DNA of 48,296 nt, taken from Candidatus Moraniibacteriota bacterium (lineage in GTDB: Bacteria > Patescibacteriota > Minisyncoccia > Moranbacterales > JAPLXC01). Of the stretch, positions 4,151-48,296 are shown in pieces. The notes below the pieces were generated by a model. That model had not been told where the DNA came from and did not search any database. It worked only from the letters and a program-made list of their open reading frames with translations. Position 1 is the first letter of the stretch. Each line of letters starts with the position of its first letter. The stretch covers positions 1 through 48,296 of the forward strand of contig JAPLXC010000011.1 of NCBI GenBank assembly GCA_026396275.1, written 5' to 3'. A program made the translations under genes and the position numbers.

Positions 4151-4924
4151 CTATATTTCTTCCGCAATTCCTGGCACCGTTTTTTTATACACAAAAATTC
4201 CCGAAGCAAAAAACAGTAAAGTCGCTAGAATAAAAATGCCGGTCTGCCACAATTCCGGAAAGTGGTTATCAATAAGCGCTTCTTTAGTAAAATGGATGAT
4301 AAACGCTATGGGGCTTATGAGAATAATCTGCTGGACGTATTCCGGAAGCCGCTGGAGGGGATAGATTATTGGCGTGGCGTAAAAAAGTATCATAGTGAGA
4401 ACTCCCCAGATCATCAGAAGATCCCGGAATTTCACGTAAAGAGGCGCGGTAAAAAAAGAAAAGGCGAGAATTATGACATAAGTAAGGATGGAAAAAAACA
4501 GAAACAGAAGAATTGCCTCAAAACTTGGCGTGAATTGCTTCCAGATGAAAAATAACACGATAACGATAAGATTCATAATGAATATCATAGCCGAGTTGAT
4601 AGTGGAAGCCGCAATTATCGTCCAGCGGGGAACATAAATTTTAGTGACTAGCGACGACTTGGAAATCAAAGAGGCCATTCCCGCTTTGGTTCCTTCCGAG
4701 AAAAAATTAAAAAGGATTATGGCCACCAGAAGCTGGAGGGCATAATGCTTGATTCCGGAGCCGCGGGCGAAGATGGAAGAAAAAACAAAATTAAGAATGG
4801 TAAACACCAAAAGTGGATTCAAAATCGCCCACACATAGCCCAGAACCGAACCCTGATAGCGAAGCTTGAAATCGGTCTTGGCTAAAGCCCAAATTAGTTC
4901 TTTATAATTCTCATGGTGTGTCAT
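4151..4924 (-). CDS. wzm: Polysaccharide ABC exporter permease (start revised to ATG 4924)
   Basis: LAKTDFKLRYQGSVLGYVWAILNPL signature, six hydrophobic segments; TGCTATAAT 9 nt upstream of ATG 4924. Confidence 0.92.
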   Translation of the reverse strand: MTHHENYKELIWALAKTDFKLRYQGSVLGYVWAILNPLLVFTILNFVFSSIFARGSGIKHYALQLLVAIILFNFFSEGTKAGMASLISKSSLVTKIYVPRWTIIAASTINSAMIFIMNLIVIVLFFIWKQFTPSFEAILLFLFFSILTYVIILAFSFFTAPLYVKFRDLLMIWGVLTMILFYATPIIYPLQRLPEYVQQIILISPIAFIIHFTKEALIDNHFPELWQTGIFILATLLFFASGIFVYKKTVPGIAEEI

Positions 4925-5301: not shown

Positions 5302-6248
5302 TGATAGTATTCCTTATACCAATCCACAAACTTCTCAATTCCCTCCTCTATCCTCGTTTTCGGCTTCCAGCCGAGTTTGCGGAGTTTTTTGACATCCGCC
5401 ACTGTCATCGGAACATCTCCGGGCTGGATGGGCAAAAATCTCTTTTTGGCTTTTTTCCCCACGGCTTTTTCAATTACCTCAATAAAACGGGTTAGTTTTT
5501 CCGGCTTGTCCGCTCCGATATTGACGATTTCGTAGCGAAAATTTTTGTCTAGCACCTTGATAGTCCCGTCAACAATATCATCAATATAAGTGAAGTCGCG
5601 CATCATTTTGCCGTAATTGTAAACGTCAATTGTCTTTCCTTCCAGTATATTTTTCGTAAACTTAAAATAGGCCATATCCGGCCGTCCCCAGGGTCCATAA
5701 ACGGTAAAAAAGCGAAGGCAGGTGATCCTAAGCCCGTATAAATGGCTGTAAACGTGCGCCAGGAGTTCGCCGGCTTTTTTGGTGGCAGCATAGGAAGAAA
5801 CGGGATTGTCCACTCTGTCGTCTTCCAAGAAAGGAACTTTTTTATTTCCGCCGTAGACCGAAGAAGAGGAAGCGAAAACAAAATTTTTAATTTTGTGCTT
5901 TACCGCCAGTTCCAGCAGATTAACCGTTCCCTTAATGTTTACTTCTTCGTAAAGAAGGGGTTTGAGAATTGAATAGCGCACTCCCGCCATCGCGGCCAGA
6001 TGGACCACTTTGTCGGGTCTTTCTTTTCTAAATACTTTCTCCAAAAAACCATAGTCCCGAATATCGCCTTTATAAAGATTGAATTTTTTCCCGGAAAGCA
6101 AGTTTTTTACCCGGTCGTGCTTAAGAGAAGGATCGTAATAATCATTAAAATTGTCGACTATCGCAACTTTGTCTCCTCTTTCAATTAGCTTTTTGGCCAG
6201 ATGGCAACCGATAAATCCAGCTCCTCCGGTGATTAAAATTTTTGCCAT
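5292..6248 (-). CDS. NAD-dependent nucleotide-sugar epimerase (UDP-glucuronate 4-epimerase-like SDR); start revised to ATG 6248
   Basis: ILITGGAGFIG, YAATKK catalytic motif, LRFFTVYGPWGRPDMA, QPGDV. Confidence 0.9.
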   Translation of the reverse strand: MAKILITGGAGFIGCHLAKKLIERGDKVAIVDNFNDYYDPSLKHDRVKNLLSGKKFNLYKGDIRDYGFLEKVFRKERPDKVVHLAAMAGVRYSILKPLLYEEVNIKGTVNLLELAVKHKIKNFVFASSSSVYGGNKKVPFLEDDRVDNPVSSYAATKKAGELLAHVYSHLYGLRITCLRFFTVYGPWGRPDMAYFKFTKNILEGKTIDVYNYGKMMRDFTYIDDIVDGTIKVLDKNFRYEIVNIGADKPEKLTRFIEVIEKAVGKKAKKRFLPIQPGDVPMTVADVKKLRKLGWKPKTRIEEGIEKFVDWYKEYYHVA

Positions 6249-6404: not shown

Positions 6405-8417
6405 TTATTTGTCTAAAGCTATTTTTATCAGTGAGGCCTTAAATTTATTAAACCACTTATTTATCTCTTTATTTCTTACCTGTTTTATTTTTTTAATTAA
6501 CCTTCTTCTTTCAATCAGTTTTGGAAGATTTCTGCCAACGTCCCGCCAGCTTTTGAGCAACAATTTTATTATTCCCTCTCTTTCTCTTGTTTTTCGAAAT
6601 TCATAAATCTGGCCTTTTTGGATGAATATACCAAAAAAGGAAAAAATATAGTGGACAAAAAGAAATAAAAAGGCCTTAATTAAGATCCAAAAAGGCAAAT
6701 TTTTTACGATGTTATAATATTGATTTCTAACTATAAAGAAGGCCTTAAACGACGAGTAGCTTTTTCCTGTCGCGCTGTGGGCATGAAAGACCTTCGCCTC
6801 CGGGCAATAGTAGGATTTGAAGCCGGCCAGACGAAGCCGCCAGGCCAAATCTACGTCCTCCTGGTAGGAAAAATAGCTCTCGTCGAAAAATTCATTTTCG
6901 CTCAATTTGACTTTTTCTAGAGCATGGCGCGCAAAGAGACCGGCGCTGGCGCTTGAGCCGAAAATTTCTTCTTCTTTTTCATATTGGCCGATATCTTTCT
7001 CTTTTTGCCCCCGGTTTATGGCACTGGTGTCAAAATAAATTTCAATTCCGGTGCTATCAATCATTTGGGGGTTGAAAAAATTCATCACTTTCGGCTGGAT
7101 CGATCCGGCATCCGGGTGCCGCACGGCGCATTCGATCATTTTCTCAATGTAGCCAGGATCGACTCTGGTATCGTTGTTTAAAGTTACAATATAGTCAACA
7201 CTCGTGTCTTCAAAGGCCTTGTTAATCCCGATATTGTTCGCCTTGGCAAATCCCTGGTTTTCCGGCAAACTGATAATTTCAATTTCGGGAAAATTACTTT
7301 TAACAAATGATACCGAATCATCCGAAGAGCCATTGTCTACCAGAATAATTTTGAAATTTTTATAGGTCTGATGGCGAAGCGAGAAAAGACAATCGTTCAA
7401 ATATTCTTTTCCGTTCCAGTTGGCGATAATTACCGCCGCTTTTCCATCCGGCTTGTTTTCTTCTTTTCGGGCAATAGCGATAATCGTCTTGGTGAGATGG
7501 CTCTGGCTAGTCTGTTTTTTTCCTGCCACGATTATCATTCTGCCGGTTCCCAGCGGAGATAAAAAAATTCCGGTGATTTGTGCAAAAAAGAGTTTCATAA
7601 TGTATGGGAACATATTAAAAGTTTTGGCTCCTAAAATAAGAAAAGAATTGCTCCCGTGTTTTGAATAATATTGTAAACCCCTGATGATATCCGATGGAAC
7701 TACTTCGTTCAGTATCTTGATATTTTCGAAGCCAACCCGGAAGAGCAGCTTTTTTACACCCCTTTTTGTAAAATGAACTCTGTGCCTGGGCAGGTCAAAA
7801 CCACTGCAGAATTTTCCGAAAAATCTTGCTTCCCATGAATCGAAACGGGGAATTTTAATAAACAATAAACCTGAATCATCCAAACCGTTTTGAAAAATAT
7901 CGGTGAGACATTTATTAAAATCATTAATATGTTCCAATACATGACGGCCAACGATGATATTATACTTCTTATTATATTTTATGCCGGATGCAAAGCCATT
8001 CTGTAAATCAATATTAAAATTATTTTTTGCAAATTCTATCCCGCTTTTGCCCGGTTCTATTCCCTCAACAATGAATCCAATTTTTTTTGCTTCATTTAAA
8101 AATTCACCCCTGCCCGATCCGATCTCGAACAATGTAGAATTATTGTATGATGTATTTTTCAAAATAATTTTTAAATCACCCCGGTATTTTTTTGTCTGAA
8201 GAAATGCTGCAAATGATTTTTTGGGTTTGTAAGCTTCATATTCGTCAGGATAGTAAGATGACAGTTCTTCATCGGAAAGGAACGGAGTAGAAATACCGAT
8301 TTCACAGTCATTACAGTAAGCTATGCCGAAAGAGGGAGAATTTCCGTCAAGAATAAAATAATCTTTCCCGTCTTCGAACAGAATTTTACATTCATTTCTG
8401 CATATGGGGCATTTCAT
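6405..8417 (-). CDS. Methyltransferase (N-terminal Cys-rich zinc-binding part plus SAM domain) fused to GT2 glycosyltransferase; start revised to ATG 8417
   Basis: MKCPIC...C..C, LFEIGSGRG, HVLEH; then IIANWNG, ILVDNGSSD, LNNDT, YQEDVDL. Confidence 0.85.
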   Translation of the reverse strand: MKCPICRNECKILFEDGKDYFILDGNSPSFGIAYCNDCEIGISTPFLSDEELSSYYPDEYEAYKPKKSFAAFLQTKKYRGDLKIILKNTSYNNSTLFEIGSGRGEFLNEAKKIGFIVEGIEPGKSGIEFAKNNFNIDLQNGFASGIKYNKKYNIIVGRHVLEHINDFNKCLTDIFQNGLDDSGLLFIKIPRFDSWEARFFGKFCSGFDLPRHRVHFTKRGVKKLLFRVGFENIKILNEVVPSDIIRGLQYYSKHGSNSFLILGAKTFNMFPYIMKLFFAQITGIFLSPLGTGRMIIVAGKKQTSQSHLTKTIIAIARKEENKPDGKAAVIIANWNGKEYLNDCLFSLRHQTYKNFKIILVDNGSSDDSVSFVKSNFPEIEIISLPENQGFAKANNIGINKAFEDTSVDYIVTLNNDTRVDPGYIEKMIECAVRHPDAGSIQPKVMNFFNPQMIDSTGIEIYFDTSAINRGQKEKDIGQYEKEEEIFGSSASAGLFARHALEKVKLSENEFFDESYFSYQEDVDLAWRLRLAGFKSYYCPEAKVFHAHSATGKSYSSFKAFFIVRNQYYNIVKNLPFWILIKAFLFLFVHYIFSFFGIFIQKGQIYEFRKTREREGIIKLLLKSWRDVGRNLPKLIERRRLIKKIKQVRNKEINKWFNKFKASLIKIALDK

Positions 8418-10801: not shown

Positions 10802-11206
10802 TTAGCTAAGCAATTCCTTTAAAAACCGGTGATGAGGATATCTGTCAAGCAAACTTTCATAGGTATCAGATTTTCTCTTGCTGCGCCTTTCTTTTCTTTT
10901 TATTTGTTCGAGAATTTGATGCTTATATCCCTCATTTTCACCGTGAAGCCATTGGTAAACTTTAGCGATTGTTTGAAAACTTACCCTCAACTTTTTGCTA
11001 ATCTCGTCATAGTTTTTTTCCTCCATCAGCATCTCGGCTACCTGTATTCTCCGAGCCAGCATTAACGACTCACTGGGAGTAAGAAGACCCATAAAAAAAT
11101 CAACGATTTCTTTTTTTGTTTTAAGGTTGCTAATGATTTCGTACATTTCTCCTATAATCCTGTATTTTTCCTTGCGATCAACTAGATGAGTTTTTACTTT
11201 TGCCAT
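10802..11206 (-). CDS. YerC/YecD-family TrpR-like DNA-binding protein
   Basis: LLTPSESLMLARRIQVAEMLMEEKNYDEISKKLRVSFQTIAKV, TrpR-type HTH. Confidence 0.85.
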   Translation of the reverse strand: MAKVKTHLVDRKEKYRIIGEMYEIISNLKTKKEIVDFFMGLLTPSESLMLARRIQVAEMLMEEKNYDEISKKLRVSFQTIAKVYQWLHGENEGYKHQILEQIKRKERRSKRKSDTYESLLDRYPHHRFLKELLS

Positions 11207-11239
11207 AAAAAATGCGAAAAAATCAACTTTTCATTATTT

Positions 11240-11262
11240 TACCATATTAGGTAATAAGGTAA
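11240..11262. promoter_or_regulatory. Putative operator, copy 2, overlapping the extended -10 (TGGTAAAAT) of the TrpR-like gene
   Basis: Identical to 10718-10740; lies in the -35/-10 spacer. Confidence 0.6.
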
Positions 11263-11278
11263 AGTGATGGCTTTGGTC

Positions 11279-11338
11279 TTGATTATAACTATGACTGCAA
11301 TTATAGCCGCAATTATGACTGTAACTATAATTACAATT
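11279..11338. repeat. Hexamer-periodic tract (nine RYRRYY units plus one degenerate unit)
   Basis: TTGATT ATAACT ATGACT GCAATT ATAGCC GCAATT ATGACT GTAACT ATAATT ACAATT. Confidence 0.75.
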
Positions 11339-11340
11339 TG

Positions 11341-12537
11341 TCATTTTATTTTCGGGCTGTTTAGCAGCCTCGCATAAATTTCTTCTATTTTCTTCGCCGA
11401 TTTATCCCAGCTGAAATTTTTGGATCTTTCATAGTTGATTTCGCCTTTCGTTTTCATTTCTTCGGGATGGCGAAGAAAATGCAGGATACCATCGGCAATA
11501 CCTTGAGCGGAAACCTCGGTACTGTAATAAGCCCCTTCTCCTAAATATTCCCGATTGTTAATTTTATCAAAGCAAACCACCGGCAGTCCAGCTGCCATAT
11601 ACTGCAAAATTTTTCCGCTGGCCTGGCAGGCGGAGGAATCCTTGGGATCGACGCCAACATCACTGGCACCGAGCAATTGAGGCAGATCAAAATAATTAAG
11701 CGGGCTAACTAGCCGCACACTATTCTCCAGAGTGTGCTTTTTCACATAATGCTCTATTTCTCCTATAGGAAACCCCCCGATGACAAAATAGGCCTTGTCC
11801 GTCGCTCTTAAAACTAGCGGAATAGCATCCAGCAAGTATCGGATGCCTTTATTGGCCACCAGCGCGCCGGTGTAAGTGATAATTACTTTATCCGGAGTAA
11901 GTTCCAGCTCTTTTTTCAATTCCTCTTTGGCAGGAAGATGGATATAATGCTCTGGATTAACTCCATCCGGCACTGTCTTTACTTTGCCATCTTTGCGCCA
12001 GCGGGAAATTTCCCGGCTGTTTTCCCAGGAGCTAGTAATAGCGTAGTCACCCAAATTATCAATAAGCTTTTCCAAAAATTTAAAAACGCCCCTTAGAATC
12101 CCGTCGCTCAAATATCCATGAGAGATCATTTCTCTTGTTAAGCTCCCGTGAAAATCGGCCACTAATTTCATTTTTCTCCAAAACAGCAAATTCTTCACAA
12201 TCCACCCGACCAATACTCCTTCGTGAAGATGTCCGTGGAGAATGTCCGGTCGGCCGGTTCTGGCCAAATTAAACACCTTGCGGATAAGCATCAAATCAAG
12301 AATTATCTTCTGCCAGTCGGGACCGGCCTCCAGTTTTTTATACCAAAAAAGAAGGCGCCTGATCCTTCTCACATCAATGGAGGTCTTGATATCTTTTTCA
12401 ATGTCTTTCCCGATATGATAAGTGGCAATGGTAACCTTATGGCCCAGTTTTTCCAGAGCCAGCGCTTCCTCCAGTATTCGAATATGCGTCCCCCGGTCAG
12501 CAAAAAAAGGAGTGGGGGCAATAATCAGTATTCTCAT
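11341..12537 (-). CDS. GT4 glycosyltransferase
   Basis: MRILIIAPTPFFADRGTHIRI, ITYTGAL...KG, GKILQYMAAGLPVV, FSWDKSAKKIEEIY. Confidence 0.9.
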   Translation of the reverse strand: MRILIIAPTPFFADRGTHIRILEEALALEKLGHKVTIATYHIGKDIEKDIKTSIDVRRIRRLLFWYKKLEAGPDWQKIILDLMLIRKVFNLARTGRPDILHGHLHEGVLVGWIVKNLLFWRKMKLVADFHGSLTREMISHGYLSDGILRGVFKFLEKLIDNLGDYAITSSWENSREISRWRKDGKVKTVPDGVNPEHYIHLPAKEELKKELELTPDKVIITYTGALVANKGIRYLLDAIPLVLRATDKAYFVIGGFPIGEIEHYVKKHTLENSVRLVSPLNYFDLPQLLGASDVGVDPKDSSACQASGKILQYMAAGLPVVCFDKINNREYLGEGAYYSTEVSAQGIADGILHFLRHPEEMKTKGEINYERSKNFSWDKSAKKIEEIYARLLNSPKIK

Positions 12538-39152: not shown

Positions 39153-39286
39153 TTTTACGCAAACGAAAAACACTTCAAAACGCAGAAAACGCCATTTAAG
39201 GTGTTTTTTCAAATATTCATCTAGCAATATGTTATAATAATGATAAGAACAAAAACTAATAAAACAAATAGAAAGGCAGGTGAATT

Positions 39287-39919
39287 ATGAAAAAATATAT
39301 TATTCTGGGAATAGCTTCTTTTGCGGTATTGCTTCTGGCTGGTTGCGGAACGCAAACAAGTAAAACAACTCCGACCGTCAATTTGACTCCGGAGAAAAAA
39401 GTGGCTTTAAGCGTGGAAGGAGGAAATTGCACTACGAATACAAACTGCGAAACAGGACTAAAGTGCATAAGCAATAAATGCTCATCCGGAAAGGTCGGCT
39501 CGGTTTGTGCAACATACAAAGATTGCAACACTGGTCTTTACTGCGTAAAATCAGTTTGTTCCAATCCCCCGTCATATTCAAAATATTTCAATAAAATTAC
39601 TATCGCCAAAATGAAAGCGGGAATGCCTCCGAGTCTGAAAAATATCCCTGTCCCAGCCACCGAATTCAATGCAGCTACTGATGCCATAGAAATTGACGTT
39701 GAACCCAAAGCTGGCACAACTGGAGAGTTATATTACGAACTTATCGATTCCACCACAGGACAAACCACTATGTCTTCAGCTGGCAATAAAATGAAAGTTG
39801 ACCCAAGAGGAGGCGGAACTGGATTTGGCATTCCATTCGGAACAGTTGGAGATTTTGAATTGAACATCTATTTCAACAACGAGCTGATTCACACCGTGAC
39901 AGTTAAAATAAACCCATAA
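39287..39919 (+). CDS. Putative lipoprotein with two Cys-rich repeats
   Basis: Lipobox LLAGC; 2 x C-x5-C-x2-GL-x-C-x4-C. Confidence 0.75.
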   Translation: MKKYIILGIASFAVLLLAGCGTQTSKTTPTVNLTPEKKVALSVEGGNCTTNTNCETGLKCISNKCSSGKVGSVCATYKDCNTGLYCVKSVCSNPPSYSKYFNKITIAKMKAGMPPSLKNIPVPATEFNAATDAIEIDVEPKAGTTGELYYELIDSTTGQTTMSSAGNKMKVDPRGGGTGFGIPFGTVGDFELNIYFNNELIHTVTVKINP

Positions 39920-39985
39920 GATGATTTCAAAAAACAAAAACAGCTTCAAAATAAGAGGCTGCTTTTTGTTATCTGATAAGTTTTT

Positions 39986-41356
39986 TTATTTTATTTTTTC
40001 TTCCAATTTCGCTTTCGTCAGCGGTCCGACATAGCCTGTTTGAGAAATGCCATTCTGTTTTTGGAATTCCATAACTGCATTTGTAGTAAGTGGCCCGTAA
40101 AATCCAGTGATATATTGTTTATCCAAAAAACTGAGAGAAATAAGAGCTTTCTGAATATTTTTAATTCCTTCAACTGTTTGGGGATTAAAGTCTTCCGCTG
40201 ACATATTATAGCCAATGTTATTCAGATTTATTTTTTTATCCGCTTTTTCCTTATCAGTATGAGGATTGGTCACGCTGACGGTTCTTTTCCGACTAGCCTG
40301 ATTATCCAATAACTTATTCATACAGAATTTAGCTACAATTTTCTTGCTGGATTTTTTATCTACCGAAAAAGCTTCGTGGTTACCAATTTTAACTTCAGCA
40401 TCACCGTCAAAATGCTTGCCTTTGATTTCAAGTTTCAATTTATCTTTACATAATTTGCTGGTTTGGTCTTCATATTTATAAGCTTTCCAGGAGCTTATAC
40501 TTGCTTTTTCATTTTCATCTTCGTCATCATTTTCTTCTTCTTCAGTTTCGGCAATGCTGGTATATTGGGAAATTGCGAAATAAGAAGCGTGGGAAACATC
40601 AAAAGAGCAACTGCCGCCTATAACGGTACAGTCAATTTCCATAGGATCCCAGCCTTCATCGTTATCGCCGTCATTTCTTGAAAATATATTCAAAATTTGG
40701 TCGTTATATTCCGCGCCAACATGAAAAGTGATGGTGACATTATGGGAAGAAAAAGTCAAATCGTTATCGGGTATCCCGAAACGAAGTTTTAATATAATTC
40801 TTTCATTGTTGGGATCAACGATTTCAGCATACCATTCCGTAAGATCAAATGTTCCGCCTTCTTCAGTTGTTGTAACCACGGTTCCGGACGGAAAAAGAAG
40901 CGAGAAATCTCCGTCTTCGGAATCATAGCTGTATTCCTCGCTAAAAGTAACTGACGAAAATTCAAAATCTTCTCCTTCGCTAGTATAATAAAATTCAAAA
41001 GGATAATCTTCGTCCACATAAATATAAGCGAAAGTGGAATCTTCTCCTTCTTCGGTAGCCGTAATTTCGGCCGTGTAATAATATCCTGGATCCAACGCAC
41101 TAGCAAATGTTATGCTCCAATCTCCATTATTCACTGAATCTAAAGAATATTCAATTCCGTCAATTCCGTTAATTGTCACGGAAATTTCAGCGCTGCTGAT
41201 AACGCCGCTGATCGTTCCTTTGATAAGAGGCGTCGGATCATTGGTTACCATATGATAAGCCGAAACCGAAGGAGCGGCTTTTGCCTTATCCGCAGAAAAA
41301 ACCAAAAAACAGGACAAGAGGAATAATAAAATAAAAAGGCTGCTTATTTTTTTCAT
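39986..41356 (-). CDS. Secreted Ig-like-domain protein with C-terminal peptidoglycan-binding domain
   Basis: Signal peptide; TNDPTPLIKGT; ITGFYGPLT..AV..FQ..NGI..TGYVGPLT. Confidence 0.8.
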   Translation of the reverse strand: MKKISSLFILLFLLSCFLVFSADKAKAAPSVSAYHMVTNDPTPLIKGTISGVISSAEISVTINGIDGIEYSLDSVNNGDWSITFASALDPGYYYTAEITATEEGEDSTFAYIYVDEDYPFEFYYTSEGEDFEFSSVTFSEEYSYDSEDGDFSLLFPSGTVVTTTEEGGTFDLTEWYAEIVDPNNERIILKLRFGIPDNDLTFSSHNVTITFHVGAEYNDQILNIFSRNDGDNDEGWDPMEIDCTVIGGSCSFDVSHASYFAISQYTSIAETEEEENDDEDENEKASISSWKAYKYEDQTSKLCKDKLKLEIKGKHFDGDAEVKIGNHEAFSVDKKSSKKIVAKFCMNKLLDNQASRKRTVSVTNPHTDKEKADKKINLNNIGYNMSAEDFNPQTVEGIKNIQKALISLSFLDKQYITGFYGPLTTNAVMEFQKQNGISQTGYVGPLTKAKLEEKIK

Positions 41357-41558
41357 TTTTCTCGCCCCCTTTTTTTTATTTTACACAATTATTTTACCAT
41401 ATTTTTCAGAGAACGCGCAAATTCTAACCACCAGTGTCATTAATATCAATTGTACGTAAATAATTACTTACCTGAATATATACTCAAGTATATACTTAAA
41501 TACGTATTTAACACTTTCCTGGACTCACCTTGCGATGTTAGCTCTTGAGGCAAGAAAG

Positions 41559-41591
41559 CCTGCCCCGCGGGAGCGTAGCGACTTTACGGGG
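41559..41591. mobile_element. 33-bp CCTG-tagged hairpin insertion splitting a TTGACT...TAACAT promoter-like site
   Basis: Filled GAAAG[CCTGCCCCGC...ACGGGG]TCAAC versus empty GAAAG|TCAAC at 42499-42508. Confidence 0.7.
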
Positions 41592-41637
41592 TCAACTTTT
41601 AGTTACCCACTCGTTGCCCACTTGGGAAAAATAAAAA
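41591..41637. repeat. Direct repeat copy 1 flanking the protease gene
   Basis: 33 identical bp with 42503-42535, similarity extends to ~46 bp. Confidence 0.92.
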
Positions 41638-41657
41638 TGAGCCGTTTTGGGCAAAAT

Positions 41658-42449
41658 TTATTGCTTAGAAATTTTCCAGGTTATAAGTTTGTGAGACAAT
41701 GCCATAGTAGTTCCAGAAGGTATAATCTTTTCTATTCCATTTAAACTTGTTAAACCTTTCTGACAAACAATCCCTACTAACTTTCCTGAATAATTTACTA
41801 CCGGACCACCGCTAGCACCGAAAGTGGAAGCGTTGTCTATCCAGTAAGAAGCACCGTCTATACTAACACTTTTATCTAAAAATTTTGCGCTGATTTTTAT
41901 ACCATGTACAGCACCAATCATACCGCTTTTTGCCATAATCAGATTCATCGAAAATTTAAAATGATTTTCGATTTCTTTATGTTTAGCTACAAGTTCAGCA
42001 TTTCCTTCATAATTTAAACTCTTATTAAAATCTAAGGTAGGATTTATTTCATCAGGAAAACCAGCCATTATTACATCCTCCCCAACATCTGGTATACTTT
42101 CTTCCAATTCCATAAATTCGAGACCCTCTAAATTTTCAATTGGTCTTAAGATTGCCAAGTCTATCCCTAACGGCTTCACAACTCCAGAAGTCCCGACATC
42201 CAATGACACATCAGAAAAATCAATTGTATAAGGTATTGGTTGGAGGCTCCCATCATTATCAAAGGTATTAACGATAATAAGCGGCTGTTTTAATTGCTTA
42301 TATTTTTCTATAACATGGTTTGCTGTAAGTATAAAGCCTTCGCTATTGATTAAAATACCTGTTCCTGCACTAATATAATTATCTCCATCCTTTAATAGAA
42401 TCTTTCTTGTTACGTTTTTTATTTTTTTACAAATTTCAATTTTATTCAT
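41658..42449 (-). CDS. Trypsin-like serine protease (start revised to ATG 42449)
   Basis: TANHV, DLAIL, GASGGP catalytic triad; no signal peptide. Confidence 0.88.
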   Translation of the reverse strand: MNKIEICKKIKNVTRKILLKDGDNYISAGTGILINSEGFILTANHVIEKYKQLKQPLIIVNTFDNDGSLQPIPYTIDFSDVSLDVGTSGVVKPLGIDLAILRPIENLEGLEFMELEESIPDVGEDVIMAGFPDEINPTLDFNKSLNYEGNAELVAKHKEIENHFKFSMNLIMAKSGMIGAVHGIKISAKFLDKSVSIDGASYWIDNASTFGASGGPVVNYSGKLVGIVCQKGLTSLNGIEKIIPSGTTMALSHKLITWKISKQ

Positions 42450-42502
42450 ATACTTTTTAAAAAAATTAATAACCTTCCCCACTCTATTTCGCTTGCACGA
42501 AA

Positions 42503-42548
42503 GTCAACTTTTAGTTACCCACTCGTTGCCCACTTAGGGAAATAAAAA
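42503..42548. repeat. Direct repeat copy 2
   Basis: GTCAACTTTTAGTTACCCACTCGTTGCCCACTT. Confidence 0.92.
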
Positions 42549-42565
42549 CCCCTGCTTGGGGCGGG

Positions 42566-43504
42566 TTATTGAATCTTATTTCTTATTTTGTTCCAGAGCT
42601 CAAGTTCATCAGAGAGTAATTGCCTAACTACTAAATCCGTAATATTTCCGATAATTGCAAACTCAGTGTGAATTTTAAAATCATCAAGGTTCAACCATTT
42701 GTCTTGCGGATATTTTTCAGGAAAAATATGCGCGATTAAGTGTCTATGAGATTGAGTTATCCATTTATAAAAATATCCAAATGCTTTTCCGTCTAGCTCT
42801 TTGTATTTAGGATAAGCAATAGCCCAAACTAGCGTATCTTGATCTATTTTTTTTTGAGGCCTTTTAATTTCAGGATATTTTTTTATATACTCATCAGCAT
42901 CTCTAAATGCCTCTCTTCTTTCATAAAAACCTTCTAAAATTTTATAAAAACAAAAGAAACGATAGAACGGACTAGGACTATTTCTTCCCTCTCTATACAA
43001 TGAGAGAATAGCTTTAAACTTATCATCAAATTCTAGCCCCGCTGGTAGTGCAAATTCCTCTGGAGCAGCATATTGTGGAAAAGCTTCTCGAGCTGTTTGA
43101 TGTTTTAAATCAACTACAACAACACCGAAAATGGAAAGTGGTGAAGCAGAAGCAAATGTTATAAAACTAATTAAATTAGAAAGGTTATTGTATGTTCTTA
43201 CCAGAGCCTCGATAGAAGAATTTGATTTTATTTTAAATCTTATGCGCCCCAATCTTTCTTCTTCATTTTTTTCAAAGAGCATTGTTATTTCCTCCTTCTT
43301 ATCTCCTTTTATCTCGGTTTGAGTTTTAGTCTCATTTTCTTTTAACACAAATGGGCTGTCAAATTTTTTCCTTCGGTCTGGATCTTCCAATGTAAAAATT
43401 ACTTCGAATTCTCTTTTCGAAGTGTCTTTTTTTGAAGCATCCGATTTTATTAAATCGCTATCCCCTTTATCCCAGAGGGCATAGCCAAAATGGGGAATCC
43501 ACAT
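42566..43504 (-). CDS. MauJ/ApeA-like protein with C-terminal HEPN-type RxxxxH motif (start revised to ATG 43504)
   Basis: LYREG...YRFFCFYKILE and RHLIAH; TATAAT 6 nt upstream of ATG. Confidence 0.6.
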   Translation of the reverse strand: MWIPHFGYALWDKGDSDLIKSDASKKDTSKREFEVIFTLEDPDRRKKFDSPFVLKENETKTQTEIKGDKKEEITMLFEKNEEERLGRIRFKIKSNSSIEALVRTYNNLSNLISFITFASASPLSIFGVVVVDLKHQTAREAFPQYAAPEEFALPAGLEFDDKFKAILSLYREGRNSPSPFYRFFCFYKILEGFYERREAFRDADEYIKKYPEIKRPQKKIDQDTLVWAIAYPKYKELDGKAFGYFYKWITQSHRHLIAHIFPEKYPQDKWLNLDDFKIHTEFAIIGNITDLVVRQLLSDELELWNKIRNKIQ

Positions 43505-43581
43505 ATCATTATTATATCCCAAAATAAAAACAAAAAACACCATTTAAGGCGTCTTTAAAAAAATACTAACCTATTTTGTTT

Positions 43582-43800
43582 TTACCTATCCTCCACTCCC
43601 TGTCTTGCTCCGCTCATCGTATCTTGGGTTTTATTGTATGATTCGACAACTAAAAGTATAACTATAAGCAAAAAAATGCCAAGAATTATTTTCCAAACTA
43701 TTGATATTCCTCTTTTGTTTTTGCCCAGCCACTCTCCGCAATGTTTACATTTAGCTGAGTCATCCTGTATTTCTTCGGCACAATACGGGCATTTTTTCAT
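43582..43800 (-). CDS. Zinc-ribbon plus single-TM small protein
   Basis: CPYC...CKHC followed by a hydrophobic helix. Confidence 0.75.
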   Translation of the reverse strand: MKKCPYCAEEIQDDSAKCKHCGEWLGKNKRGISIVWKIILGIFLLIVILLVVESYNKTQDTMSGARQGVEDR

Positions 43801-43952
43801 TTTTTTACTTTATCCAATTACTGAATAAAATGTACCACAAAAATGACGCCTAGGAAAGTGGAGCAGACCAACACAAAAAACTCCTAGAATAAAAGTTTTT
43901 TATACAAAAAGTCCGCTTGGGACGAGATTAGAAAGTTGACCCATCGGCATCC

Positions 43953-44705
43953 TCACTTATCCCAAGGATAAACCAATGCTCCCTTGTCAGTAATTGTTTT
44001 ATATAAAGTACCAAAATATATTTCATTTAATCGGTTTATACTCTTTTTGTCCTCAACAATTTTCTTTTTCCATTTTCTTCTGATGTCCTTATACACCAAC
44101 CTATATAATAGTTCAAGCTTTTCTACGAATTGTTCGTCCTTCGATCTAGCTAGCGTATCTATCATAGAAAGCCTATCGATATCTTCATCAGTATACCTTG
44201 TGAAATGAACGTGCGACCCGCGAACCTTAATGTATCCGCTAAAAGCTGAGGTTACCAAAGTGCCCAATTTCTTAGTTGCCGAAGAGACTTTGGATTTAAT
44301 TTTTGATTTTTTATAAGCTCGTTCAATAATAGTTAAATATGCTAACATTCTTTGTTGTAAAATATAAATCTCATTTAAATAATTTTCAATGTGGTATTTA
44401 AAATAGACATATTTTGATATTCCTTTTTTTTGAAAAGGAAAAACATCTATATATATCGGGATGTTTTGTAATGCTTCATAAGAATTAGCTATCTCAGAGA
44501 ATAGTCTAAATAACTTCATAGCAAATTCGTCCTCTCGGCTCAATTTTTTTTGCGTCAAAGCTTTTGGTCCGTCTCTGTCAAATAAAACATTTCCCAAAAC
44601 TTCAGCCAGCTCCTTATCCTCATCTTTGTGGCTATCTATCCTATCTCTCGAAAAATCAAATACTAAATCAGCATATTGTTTAGTTTTACCAGTATAAAAA
44701 TCCAT
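43953..44705 (-). CDS. HEPN-domain protein (Cthe_2314-like)
   Basis: KYHIENYLNEIY and RGSHVH (Rx4H); family from recollection of motif, unverified. Confidence 0.55.
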   Translation of the reverse strand: MDFYTGKTKQYADLVFDFSRDRIDSHKDEDKELAEVLGNVLFDRDGPKALTQKKLSREDEFAMKLFRLFSEIANSYEALQNIPIYIDVFPFQKKGISKYVYFKYHIENYLNEIYILQQRMLAYLTIIERAYKKSKIKSKVSSATKKLGTLVTSAFSGYIKVRGSHVHFTRYTDEDIDRLSMIDTLARSKDEQFVEKLELLYRLVYKDIRRKWKKKIVEDKKSINRLNEIYFGTLYKTITDKGALVYPWDK

Positions 44706-44832
44706 TAAAATATAACTTCAAAAAAAATTTAACATTCCTACTTTTTGTATTATACCAGATTTTATCGTTCTGAAATAAAATGTTGAGAAATAAAAACACA
44801 AAAACAGGGTTTCCCCTGCTTCCATAATTTTG

Positions 44833-45005
44833 TTCAGCATCGTAATTTTATGCGATTAGTCCCCGCCCGCCATCGCTACGCTTCAGGCGTTGCGGGCAGG
44901 CTTTTAAAGTCTATGCATACCCTTGTATAAAAGATACAACTATCAATTACTTGGCTTGATTAGGCCTTTGACGTGTCTTGAATAAATTCAAATTTCGAAA
45001 AGATG
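44833..45005 (-). ncRNA. Structured RNA candidate, copy A (interrupted by a hairpin element)
   Basis: Homologous to 46607-46745 with three compensatory base-pair changes; followed by terminator-like hairpin 44795-44820; strand inferred. Confidence 0.6.
44866..44900. mobile_element. 35-bp CAGG-tagged hairpin insertion
   Basis: CCCGCCATCGCTACGCTTCAGGCGTTGCGGG-CAGG; absent from copy B. Confidence 0.65.
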
Positions 45006-45046
45006 AGCATATCATGCAGTTGCGCAAAATTACGAATAATTGGCTT

Positions 45047-46540
45047 TTAACTAAATAGCTTGACTAGCCACCCAAACAAACTTACGCTCCGCTCTCTTTT
45101 AGCAACAAATGCTTGCAATTTATTGTTCTGTTGAGTGAACAAATTAATTTGCTTCTGTAATACAGATCTTACAGCAGGATCGGTTATTAGATTCGCTACA
45201 TCAGTCAGAGTCTTAATTCTTGCTTGGTTTGCAACTATCTCAGCCTTTAAAGATTTAATGCCTTTATATTTTGGCCCGATAAGAAATTTTGCAAATCCAC
45301 TCCTGCTACTGATTTCATTAACTGCGTTTTCAATTTTTGCCTGAGAATCATCCTGCCCACGCACATTCATTAGTATTTTCTGCCCAATACCTCCTACCAG
45401 CTCCGCTATGGTTCTCAAATTATGGATGAAATAAGCGACATGCTTTTTATAAGAACCAGCCACTGCTTCTTTATTGCTATCATCAGTATTATTAATATTA
45501 TTATTTTCTTCGAGGGTCATCTCAAGCAACTTTTCCAATCGTTCTAATTTCTGTTCGGCTGATTCCAGAAGGCTCGCCGCTTCCTGAGGATTGGTAGCCA
45601 TCATTAGCTCAAATCCGGAGGCCGTAACCCTTACTTCGCTGAGAATATTCTTGAATGGTTCTGCAGCAATTCCGCTAGAGGCTAAATCATTTATTTTTAA
45701 TTCAACATTTCGGATTTTGGAATTGAGCTCGCCAATAGTCCCTGCAATTCTTTTCCTTAAATCACTGATTATTCCAGTATTCTTTTCGGTTAATTTTTCA
45801 TACTCTTCAATCTTTTCTGTTCCTTTGAGTAAGTCGTCTTTCAAACGCCTCACGAAAGATCCCATCTGATCAGAATTTCCAGCCAGCACGTTGAATGTAT
45901 CAAGGAATTTATTCAATAGAGGATCGGCAATGCTATTGGGATATTTTATTGTATGATCTATTTCGCTCCATCCTTCTTCAAAAATAGTTCTAACTTGTAT
46001 TTCAGCAATATAGGGATCTCTGCCAGGCCTTGACTGAATCAGGTAATGAACCGATCTATAACCATGGGGATGCAATTCAACATTACATTTATACTTTTTG
46101 TATTCCTCAACACAGGGACCTGCATCTCCTTCCCTGATATAAGCTAATGGTTGCTCGTGCAAATCCCAATTATCCTCTATAAATTTATGGATAAACACCC
46201 AGTCTTCCTTAAATAGATGAATGGCTCTTATTCCGATTAAATCTGTTATCAAAGATTTATAGTTGTGAATCGTAATCTCGCGCTTTGGATCTTCAATTTT
46301 CTTTCTTATAATCTTGGCTAAAAGATGTTCGGAGTCTTTTATCCTATATCTGACTGAATGCACTATGTCCAAAGTATGCAGTTTTTCCTCTATATACCTG
46401 GCAATAAGATTTAATTCTTTTTTGATTTTTTTATAATCTTTTTCCATGGACTGCAAATCTTCCCACTTTAAATTTGTGGATTCAAAATCCTTCTCCGATA
46501 TGTTGAATCTTGCTAAAAAATTATTCAGATCATCATTCAT
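45047..46540 (-). CDS. RelA/SpoT-type nucleotidyltransferase (small alarmone synthetase-like) with ~270-aa helical C-terminal extension
   Basis: RIKD...K, DLIGIR, GYRSVHY, EIQVRT, W.E..H...Y; no HD hydrolase domain. Confidence 0.85.
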   Translation of the reverse strand: MNDDLNNFLARFNISEKDFESTNLKWEDLQSMEKDYKKIKKELNLIARYIEEKLHTLDIVHSVRYRIKDSEHLLAKIIRKKIEDPKREITIHNYKSLITDLIGIRAIHLFKEDWVFIHKFIEDNWDLHEQPLAYIREGDAGPCVEEYKKYKCNVELHPHGYRSVHYLIQSRPGRDPYIAEIQVRTIFEEGWSEIDHTIKYPNSIADPLLNKFLDTFNVLAGNSDQMGSFVRRLKDDLLKGTEKIEEYEKLTEKNTGIISDLRKRIAGTIGELNSKIRNVELKINDLASSGIAAEPFKNILSEVRVTASGFELMMATNPQEAASLLESAEQKLERLEKLLEMTLEENNNINNTDDSNKEAVAGSYKKHVAYFIHNLRTIAELVGGIGQKILMNVRGQDDSQAKIENAVNEISSRSGFAKFLIGPKYKGIKSLKAEIVANQARIKTLTDVANLITDPAVRSVLQKQINLFTQQNNKLQAFVAKRERSVSLFGWLVKLFS

Positions 46541-46574
46541 AGTGAGTTAACTATAACACAGCTTAGCGCAACAC

Positions 46575-46600
46575 AAAAACGCCATTTACAGGCGTTTCTT
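46575..46600 (-). terminator. Terminator-like hairpin between RNA copy B and the RelA/SpoT-like gene
   Basis: AAACGCC-TGTAAAT-GGCGTTT followed by TTGTGTT. Confidence 0.65.
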
Positions 46601-46606
46601 ATATTC

Positions 46607-46745
46607 TTCAGCAAATCGAAATCTTTTGCGATTAGTCCTAAAGAGTCTATGCATACCCCTTGTACAAAAGGTACGGCTACCGATTATTTGGCTCGGCTAA
46701 GCCCTTGGCAGTTCTGTTAGTAAGCTAACAGTTCGACCGCCGGAC
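46607..46745 (-). ncRNA. Structured RNA candidate, copy B
   Basis: See copy A; 11-bp closing stem 46609-46620/46732-46742 with G-U pairs on the minus strand. Confidence 0.6.
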
Positions 46746-46828
46746 AATAATCAATGCTTCCCATTATATCCTATGAGGGATATAACTTTTACTAGGACAC
46801 ATTTCTCGACTATTGTCAATTTCTCCCT

Positions 46829-48180
<1,352 letters not shown>

Positions 48181-48296
48181 TGAAGAAGAGATTTTAAGAG
48201 AGAGTCAAAAAAGTGTCATGACCAATATTCTTAAAAATATTGATTCTATTTATAAACAAATTAAAAAAAACGAAGAAACAACAGGAACAGAATATT

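Follow-up and report, generated by a model that had tools for sequence, protein, structure and literature searches.

The window analysed here, the entire 48.3-kb contig JAPLXC010000011.1 (48,296 nucleotides), comes from a Candidatus Moraniibacteriota genome of 0.81 Mb (99.7% complete) and ends inside the single 16S rRNA gene of that genome. The 3' part of this gene lies on the minus strand at positions 46831-48296, where the match to the Rfam 16S model (RF00177, 1237 bits, model positions 142-1533) begins at model position 142, the gene being cut by the contig end. Directly downstream, on the same strand, are five open reading frames (ORFs), here called genes 1 to 5, which encode a RelA/SpoT fusion protein, an all-helical protein, a small zinc-ribbon membrane protein, a MauJ-domain protein and a trypsin-like serine protease, respectively. 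Gene 1 begins 290 nt past the 16S 3' end, the tail of which is intact, and the GC content of the five-gene block is 0.344, compared with 0.414 for the genome. An initial annotation, made from the sequence of the window, had described this block as a stack of individually acquired defence cassettes, and its account of five co-oriented, AT-rich genes downstream of 16S was borne out. The source genome is the sole representative of its family in the genome collection used; its relatives are of the candidate phyla radiation (CPR)/Patescibacteria type, with genomes of 0.6-1.5 Mb, all of them metagenome-assembled genomes (MAGs). The order set comprised 319 genomes and the sister family f10 71 genomes. 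In the following, G denotes genomes of relatives, L the contig loci examined (including metagenome contigs) and C contigs of the source genome.

The 16S tail, with the anti-Shine-Dalgarno sequence at its centre, forms together with the first trailer bases a 29-bp site of 11-7-11 layout, TGTGGATGGAT-CACCTCC-TTTCTAGGGAG (46823-46851, minus strand). As this is the sole copy in the source genome, it is presumed to represent an unoccupied attachment site (attB). In relatives, a dif-like site of an element type, CTCCCACGAAT-CACCTCC-TTTCTAGGGAG, was found, which also contains the 16S tail and consists of two 11-nt arms, inverted repeats of each other at 8 of 11 positions, around a 7-nt centre that is the anti-Shine-Dalgarno sequence; the native 16S end contributes the centre and the right arm. 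The geometry of the 29-bp site is that of a tyrosine-recombinase core site. A 26-mer, CCACGAATCACCTCCTTTCTAGGGAG, occurred exactly once per genome in 13 of the 71 f10 genomes, while the reversed control gave no occurrence. Where the 16S gene and the 26-mer shared a contig (five genomes), the latter was located on the same strand, 2.1, 8.7, 10.9, 30 and 32 kb downstream of the 16S gene and past variable cargo. Four of the five had a complete 16S match (model positions 1-1533), and G285 a fragmentary one. Second copies of the 16S tail were found in G251, G261, G283, G284, G285 and G276 and at locus L019. The left edge of the second copy, ...CCCACGAA|TCACCTCC, which completes the 11-7-11 site, was base-identical in 12 genomes of 8 genera and in L019. 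Beyond the site the trailer of the 16S gene was duplicated whole; in G251 the two copies match without a difference for more than 200 nt, and in G261 and G285 they have diverged.

The cargo enclosed by these repeats was different in every genome compared, including a P-type ATPase, glycosyltransferases and a metallophosphoesterase in G251, and a LAGLIDADG protein, a UvrD-like helicase, a methyltransferase, Fic and GNAT/ANT proteins in G261. The 30-kb islands of G283 and G284 each contained four regions with similarity to tyrosine recombinases, one of which in each genome was 92-94% identical to an integrase fragment of G276. This last genome, from another family, was informative with regard to the window itself. 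What its locus L115 has in common with the window is limited to the trailer and a lipoprotein gene of 75% nt identity; between these two, L115 carries an APH kinase gene and four small genes, and not genes 1-5 or the peptidoglycan (PG)-binding gene that accompanies them in the window. The presence of wholly different genes between the same trailer and lipoprotein flank supports the view of the initial annotation that the genes were acquired individually. Upstream of the trailer, L115 contains no 16S gene; the C-terminus of a tyrosine integrase (PF00589) is located there, followed 36 nt later by CCCACGAATCACCTCCTTTCTAGGGAG. The contig ends inside the integrase gene, and the complete 16S gene of G276 is on another contig. 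The lipoprotein gene of the window (39287-39919, within a region of similarity at 39226-39998) lies a few kb from the 16S trailer, as it does in G276, the surroundings being otherwise non-syntenic. The left limit of the variable or transferred zone may therefore lie as far out as ~39.2 kb, so that the PG-binding gene (39986-41356, GC 0.37) would belong to it. As a separate observation, LAGLIDADG endonuclease ORFs were present at or in the 3' part of 16S genes at L021:4709-5595 and in L158 (G261) at 11016-11456. In L021 the Rfam 16S match stops at 4709 and the 16S tail is found at 5581, which indicates an ORF-carrying insertion within the 16S gene.

In the window, the 16S gene is followed by a structured 3' trailer, designated R1A (46570-46822, minus strand). 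Its elements are hairpin 1, P1, a P2 hairpin whose loop reads UUGUACA, the TAGACTC and GGACTAATCGCAAAAGATTTCGATTTGCTGAA blocks, and, at 46577-46597, an intrinsic terminator. Beyond it, an extended -10 element, TGTTATAGT (46550-46558), stands 9 nt ahead of the ATG of gene 1. An orphan, truncated copy of the trailer, R1B (44795-44995, minus strand), lies on the other side of gene 1; it begins at hairpin 1, lacks both the 16S tail and ~90 nt at the start of the trailer, and has its own terminator (44797-44826) followed by TGGTATAAT. The core common to R1A and R1B measures ~165-200 nt, with one copy at each place. Between the copies, stems have changed in a compensatory manner (CCGA/TCGG versus TCAA/TTGA, and, in hairpin 1, CTGTTAG/CTAACAG versus TTGAA/TTCAA), while the conserved parts are the loops AUUUAU and UUGUACA together with the TAGACTC and GGACTAATCGCAnAAGATTnCGAT..GCTGAA blocks; each unit ends in the intrinsic terminator, TTTTTGTGTT and then a -10 box. 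A GC-rich, repetitive extragenic palindrome (REP)-like hairpin is inserted in R1B at ~44863-44902. This hairpin (CCYGCCYGCAACG...GCGTAGCGATGGCGGGCGG) recurs at 41554-41590, at C7:~6756-6800, upstream of the transfer-messenger RNA (tmRNA) gene at C22:~81346-81366 and at L022:5810-5850, that is, at a few intergenic places of the source genome and on another CPR contig.

A second, shorter repeat, R2, consisting of a weak terminator and a 46-nt core, is present on both sides of gene 5. R2a (42503-42565, minus strand) comprises a terminator hairpin (42548-42562) and the core, which ends in TTGAC, and R2b (41591-41636, minus strand), downstream of gene 5, is a second 46-nt copy (91% identical, 33 nt exact) which is followed by the GC-rich hairpin at 41554-41590. 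The initial annotation had credited nearly every gene with its own terminator-like hairpin and promoter. Terminator-like hairpins do separate genes 1 and 2, 3 and 4, and 4 and 5, and they were mildly enriched (8, compared with 3.4 +/- 2.2 in shuffled sequences). Promoter-like sites were not enriched (17, with 19.9 expected from shuffles), and the "hairpin plus promoter" units were found to be the repeats R1 (46570-46733; 44795-44995) and R2 (41591-41636; 42503-42548), neither of which occurs anywhere else in the source genome. Starts immediately behind a -10 box and without a Shine-Dalgarno sequence were common among the genes of the window, and the use of this leaderless arrangement as a mark of foreign genes was therefore ruled out. 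Fragments of the R2 core were present in other contexts of the source metagenome, and no copy of R1, R2 or the 16S-tail site was found on viral contigs.

A scan of metagenome contigs with the R1 core gave 12 loci. The element stood immediately after the 16S gene in L105, L111, G251, G261, G284 and G285, and the layout of L111 resembled that of the window, with a 16S gene, the trailer, a single gene of 308 aa and a truncated trailer. As R1 directly follows 16S in relatives and is duplicated past one gene in L111, comparison of these sequences indicates that R1 is the structured 3' trailer of the 16S transcript and that its extra copies mark gene boundaries. Such copies were also located between five unrelated genes that follow one another in L022 (a CPR contig of 605 kb on which a RelA fusion is likewise encoded), before APH, membrane-protein and housekeeping-type genes, and after a P-type ATPase gene in L104. 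Locus L019, which encodes a RelA protein 86% identical to that of gene 1, contains three tandem sites (1003, 4280 and 6791) that mark off blocks with between one and three genes each; after the last site come an R1-like trailer, the RelA gene and a truncated R1. Since the truncated copy follows the RelA gene there as it does in the window, the unit of trailer, RelA gene and truncated trailer would be an old, fixed cassette which now travels as a whole.

Several other identities for R1 were tried and rejected. It is not a known RNA family, as no Rfam match was obtained at E <= 5, nor is it a genome-wide repeat or uptake signal, with two copies in the source genome and the exact core in 3 of the 319 genomes of the order. 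A block in it, GGACTAATC-GCA-AAA-GAT-TAC..., resembles a tmRNA tag region; the true tmRNA, however, is located beside smpB on C22, R1 shows no similarity to it, and in R1B a stop codon comes right after GCA. The tmRNA gene was missed by ARAGORN and was identified as a full-length match to the Rfam tmRNA model (146 bits) at C22:81366-81765, directly after smpB. It was also considered that R1 might be a regulatory or antitoxin RNA, of the type III toxin-antitoxin style or a riboswitch, which silences genes 1 and 2 as toxins. A structured element with covarying stems and a terminator directly upstream of two toxin-like genes would fit such a role. It is, however, very improbable, given that R1, being the 16S trailer, is also found ahead of genes that do not encode toxins, that it is not tandemly repeated (the type III pattern of tandem short repeats, terminator and endoRNase gene was not seen), that the promoters of genes 1 and 2 are downstream of the R1 terminator, and that Rfam offers no match.

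The reading favoured for the block is that of a decayed stack of accessory genes, acquired horizontally and independently of one another, at a 16S insertion hot spot, to which a probability of roughly 55% is assigned; the window looks like a fixed remnant of this hot spot. The 16S 3' tail in this CPR order would form part of a 29-bp dif-like 11-7-11 site centred on CACCTCC, incoming elements would carry the matching CTCCCACGAAT-CACCTCC-TTTCTAGGGAG, and a tyrosine recombinase would join the two. After insertion, the 16S gene would retain a complete tail and a trailer ending in a terminator, and a second tail-plus-trailer would be left at the far side of the cargo. Repeated events would give rise to tandem arrays, and deletions would turn old boundaries into truncated orphan trailers. 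The window would preserve one such fossil boundary, with gene 1 between the native R1A and the orphan R1B; genes 2-5 would be older or otherwise acquired cargo, gene 5 being bracketed by R2. Each gene looks like a self-contained cassette because the trailer and R2 units end in an intrinsic terminator and then a -10 box. The products (a RelA/SpoT pyrophosphokinase, two proteins with an Rx4H motif and a serine protease) are most likely growth-arresting or conflict enzymes, each probably self-restrained via an extra domain of its own and not by a separate antitoxin. The view in the initial annotation that the genes were acquired individually agrees with their separate, patchy distributions, with the low GC content of the block, with the lack of co-travel elsewhere and with the 80-90% identity of gene 1 in distant CPR lineages.

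A broader proposal, given slightly less than even odds, is that CPR of this order use the 16S tail as the attachment site of a cassette-capture system, with the anti-Shine-Dalgarno CACCTCC as the crossover centre. Each unit would bring a replacement tail and trailer, sparing ribosome biogenesis, and units would pile up in an integron-like manner. A near-universal site would let cassettes such as the RelA/SpoT fusion (80-90% identity) spread between distant lineages, and the window would be a decayed, integrase-less array.

A number of observations weigh against these interpretations. Neither the window nor the rest of the genome contains a second 16S tail, and degenerate 16S-tail sites at <= 4 edits were no more frequent in the island (25) than in shuffled controls (21-27). 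The window contains no integrase, as the initial annotation had stated; this is true of the window and not of the site, at which relatives carry tyrosine integrases and duplicated 16S tails. The source genome has one PF00589 (Xer-like integrase) gene, on contig C14. As the window has no second tail, integrase or degenerate site, site-specific insertion is proposed here by analogy and from one truncated trailer. Genes 2-4 have no trailer copies between them, and in 5 of 9 loci with the RelA fusion neither a 16S tail nor R1 was found within 6-7 kb. No empty-site or excision junctions were found in the population data. Two joints, 41553>42501 and 44812>46607, had been candidates for clean losses of genes 5 and 1, respectively, and were rejected: the contigs are short and match over 18-35 nt on each side before continuing into unrelated sequence, so that the joints correspond to other R2 and R1 copies elsewhere in the community. 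Furthermore, since all relatives are MAGs, assembly artefacts may be present at some junctions, yet 13 independent genomes have the same junction. Finally, the 9- and 11-kb islands (G251 and G261) contain no integrase, and long identical repeats could equally come from homologous recombination.

This last point leads to the main rival explanation, which does without a dedicated site-specific system. In this view, the long, conserved homology of 16S gene and trailer would simply let DNA from other CPR cells enter by Campbell-type single or double crossover, resulting in trailer duplications and a variable region. The identity of the G251 repeats extends far beyond the length of a core site, R1B is without the 16S tail, and the R1 copies between the genes of L022 are likewise tail-less, all of which such recombination would accommodate, as it would the two islands without integrases. 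It does not, however, predict a left edge of the second copy that is identical to the base across so many genera and in L019, and integrases are enriched in the larger islands, one of them abutting the site. Homologous recombination of this kind is therefore considered unlikely, and insertion at the 29-bp site is preferred.

An assembly or binning artefact was also considered, in which the island and the 16S gene would be wrongly joined to each other or wrongly assigned to this genome. The contig end inside the 16S gene, the GC content of the block below that of the genome, and the higher depth of the RelA gene in other organisms of related samples would be compatible with this. Two sediment runs contain the source organism at ~4-6x, and error-free Logan contigs at this depth bridge 46198-46851 (from gene 1 through R1A to the 16S end), 44906-45124 (from R1B into the end of gene 1), 44350-44864 (gene 2 and R1B) and 41591-42269, although the bridging runs may be source samples of the assembly and hence represent non-independent support. 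An artefact is considered very improbable. Depth at 43650-43959, around the start of gene 3, was 3-6x that of its neighbours in three metagenomes, which suggests that similar sequence is present in more abundant community members.

Gene 1 (45047-46540, minus strand; 497 aa) encodes an N-terminal RelA/SpoT nucleotide pyrophosphokinase domain (Pfam RelA_SpoT PF04607, E 5e-18) and a C-terminal coiled-coil module (residues ~260-497). Aligned to RelP/RelQ, its catalytic motifs (RxKxxxS..K, DxxGxR, YRSxH and ExQxRT) are complete and read RIKDSEHLLAK, DLIGIR, GYRSVH and EIQVRT..H..KY. Residues 7-349 match phrog_2211, of unknown function (2e-59), and a phmmer search of the PDB returned only weak matches of the RelP/RelQ type, CapRel and FaRel2 not being among them. 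The catalytic domain is 40-53% identical to solitary proteins of 260-390 aa from many phyla, and such proteins are encoded on one phage each of Ralstonia and Vibrio and on ~100 Bacillus plasmids, most of them conjugative. The fusion itself was found at 80-90% identity in MAGs labelled Nealsonbacteria, Moraniibacteriota, Peregrinibacteria and Parcubacteria, with different neighbours each time; none of genes 2-5 was near it in nine other gene 1 loci, and the N-terminal domain was present in 1 of 60 relatives within the order.

Within the same order, the C-terminal module of gene 1 is also found at the end of proteins that have a signal anchor, coiled coils and an acidic linker and that terminate in S(L/I)FGWLxKLF; the motif GGIGQQV..AQAQNDS...S(L/I)FGWLxKLF is common to the gene 1 tail and this large CPR family. 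Members of the tail family are often located downstream of 16S or adjoining RelA genes (L111:10063-11388, L021:6083-6730 and L019:4688-5086), which suggests that the gene 1 fusion arose at the 16S locus. No small protein gene that could encode an antitoxin adjoins gene 1 in the window, in agreement with the initial annotation, in which no protein antitoxin was evident. By analogy, the closest functional counterparts of gene 1 could be the toxSAS enzymes, with the fused tail in a self-inhibiting or sensing role like that of the CapRel C-domain. Alternatively, gene 1 could be an exported effector, since its tail belongs to surface-protein families.

Gene 2 (43953-44705, minus strand; 250 aa) belongs to a small family without a Pfam entry and is all-helical, its AlphaFold model being a helical bundle (pLDDT 88) for which Foldseek found no specific neighbour in the PDB. 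Residues E71, E112, R119, R162, H165, H167 and R170 (RGSHVHxxR) are invariant across ~40 relatives, and R162 and H167, which form an Rx4H motif, are invariant in 24 sequences. Elsewhere, gene 2 homologs were found in two neighbourhoods unlike that of the window; they are solitary, or, in one case, overlap an upstream gene of 203 aa by 4 bp. This arrangement was seen at L129:251-1620 (also in L130 and L131), where the 203-aa gene has no assigned function; the two genes may constitute a two-gene module that is absent for the copy in the window. Gene 3 (43582-43800, minus strand; 72 aa) encodes an N-terminal zinc ribbon (Pfam Zn_ribbon_3, 1.9e-6) and one transmembrane helix, and its phrog matches are of unknown function.

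The start of gene 4 was revised to M14 (43504), because homologs align from residue 13 and residues 1-13 have a pLDDT below 50, giving a gene at 42566-43504 (minus strand; 312 aa) with an N-terminal beta/alpha domain and a C-terminal helical MauJ domain (PF17419, E 6.5e-12), a family without assigned function. The gene is immediately preceded by a TATAAT box and a terminator-like hairpin (43533-43556). The AlphaFold model is confident, with a helical C-domain (pLDDT 87), and Foldseek returned nothing significant for it from the PDB. An Rx4H motif (R267 and H272, RHLIAH) is invariant in 20 sequences, and a weak ApeA_NTD1 match (E 0.025) was obtained. The gene was absent from 60 relatives in the order, and homologs occurred in three unrelated neighbourhoods, namely a type I restriction-modification (R-M) system, a resolvase/replication module and housekeeping genes. 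At L015:6001-7566 and L017:6001-7553, the MauJ homolog is followed within ~35 nt by a small gene of the HEPN type, either DUF4145 or weakly matching PF05168, and in L017 the two genes close a type I R-M operon.

Gene 5 was likewise given a revised start, M12 (42449), because nearly all of the best full-length homologs align residue 12-13 of the query to their own residue 1-2. It then spans 41658-42449 (minus strand) and encodes a cytoplasmic trypsin-like serine protease of 263 aa (Pfam Trypsin_2, E 1.8e-16), with the histidine in TANHV, the serine motif GASGGP, and neither a signal peptide nor a PDZ domain. The family is rare (201 clusters at E<=1e-3 in 1.84 billion representatives), and the gene was absent from 40 relatives in the order. 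The Pfam matches thus uphold the calls of the initial annotation for the RelA/SpoT-like protein, the zinc-ribbon protein with its transmembrane helix, and the protease.

The HEPN assignment which the initial annotation had made for genes 2 and 4 was not confirmed; the feature in its favour is the invariant Rx4H motif. No HEPN profile reached the threshold for either gene in Pfam, NCBIfam or PADLOC, the two families aligned to each other in hhalign with a probability of 0.8%, and Foldseek matches in the PDB (E >= 0.02) were generic helical bundles or unrelated folds only. The fold comparison did not confirm an assignment to HEPN, the two confident AlphaFold models having no useful PDB match. 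Genes 2 and 4 may nevertheless encode metal-independent RNases of the HEPN kind.

Given that the genes are co-oriented and tightly packed, with 77 nt between gene 3 and the revised start of gene 4, a further possibility was that all of them, or a subset (2-4 or 4-5), form a single multi-gene defence or toxin-antitoxin system, in which, for example, the zinc-ribbon/transmembrane peptide acts as sensor or antitoxin. The overlap of a gene 2 homolog with the 203-aa gene and the small HEPN/DUF4145 genes that follow two gene 4 homologs would be in line with this. However, no gene pair of the window recurs in the other loci examined, terminator-like hairpins interrupt the block in three places, and PADLOC recognised no such system, which makes a joint function improbable; the genes are better regarded as separate acquisitions. 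A defence role for the five genes is plausible, in view of the type I R-M, resolvase and HEPN/DUF4145 genes beside gene 4 homologs and of the occurrence of the gene 1 catalytic domain on phages and plasmids. Other results count against such a role: besides the negative HEPN searches, PADLOC (PADLOC-DB v2) found no described system in the window, gave no match for genes 1, 2 and 4, and recognised in gene 5 only the trypsin domain, through domain-level matches to the protease parts of LmuA and RT-protease models. In this respect the check was unfavourable to the defence island of the initial annotation.

The known relatives of this arrangement are tRNA/tmRNA 3'-end islands, tycheposon arrays and integrons. 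Tycheposons are tyrosine-recombinase cargo elements that pile up in tandem. The islands at tRNA and tmRNA 3' ends, including the tycheposons of Prochlorococcus and those of Methylophilaceae (PMC10872708), resemble the present case in having the 3' end of a stable RNA gene as target, which is rebuilt by the element. As in the 16S islands of the relatives, a direct repeat of the RNA-gene end lies beyond the cargo, integrases are present in some islands with integrase-less blocks alongside, arrays are additive, and the variable cargo includes conflict genes. The differences are that the target here is the 16S rRNA tail, with the anti-Shine-Dalgarno sequence at the centre of the site, that the repeat takes in the whole structured trailer with its terminator, and that many blocks contain one to three genes. 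The window shares with these islands the intact stable-RNA 3' end, and has neither the distal tail repeat nor an island integrase.

Integrons and clusters of attC sites lacking integron-integrases (CALINs) are similar in that small, co-oriented and unrelated cassettes are stacked at one chromosomal place, that boundary repeats conserve structure over sequence, and that arrays occur without a nearby integrase. In the present case, however, there is no intI, attI or attC architecture, and the boundary repeat is an rRNA tail plus trailer; in the window, the boundary repeats precede -10 boxes and bracket genes 1 and 5 only. Moreover, integron cassettes are promoterless and read from the Pc promoter, whereas the units described here have their own terminator and promoter. 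SAR11 provides another case of a very small genome with a flexible island attached to an rRNA gene. This island, hypervariable region 2 (HVR2), lies between the genes for 23S and 5S rRNA and is a large region of the replacement type; we know of no description of a duplicated rRNA tail or integrase site for it. Literature searches for an attachment site in the 16S tail found no description.

With respect to the cargo, gene 1 resembles the toxSAS enzymes FaRel, FaRel2, PhRel, PhRel2 and CapRel (PMC7229694, PMC9712102, PMC11782079) in its intact synthetase domain and in being solitary and mobile, and CapRel in particular in its large fused C-terminal domain. It differs from CapRel in that this tail is a CPR-specific module of secreted proteins and not a pseudo-zinc-finger, and from toxSAS enzymes in general in having no PADLOC match and only weak RelP/RelQ matches in the PDB sequence search. 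Genes 2 and 4 are comparable to the HEPN abortive-infection RNases (ApeA and AbiV-type) in being helical with an invariant Rx4H motif and, for gene 4, in the R-M and HEPN/DUF4145 neighbours of homologs, and differ from them in the lack of a HEPN profile at threshold or a fold match.

For the study of toxins and defence, the cargo of the window adds four enzyme families that are compact and uncharacterised, namely a RelA/SpoT synthetase with a CPR-specific tail, the two Rx4H families, of which one is MauJ, and a trypsin-like protease that is cytoplasmic and solitary. If the 16S tail does serve as a recombination site, a gene-capture platform would be seated on the most conserved bacterial sequence, with a bearing on 16S-based binning and on assembly breaks. 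It would also give genetic tools a natural landing site that does not depend on the host, in organisms so far not transformable, and it could account for the way in which ultra-small CPR genomes swap surface and conflict genes between deep lineages with no mobile-element machinery in evidence.

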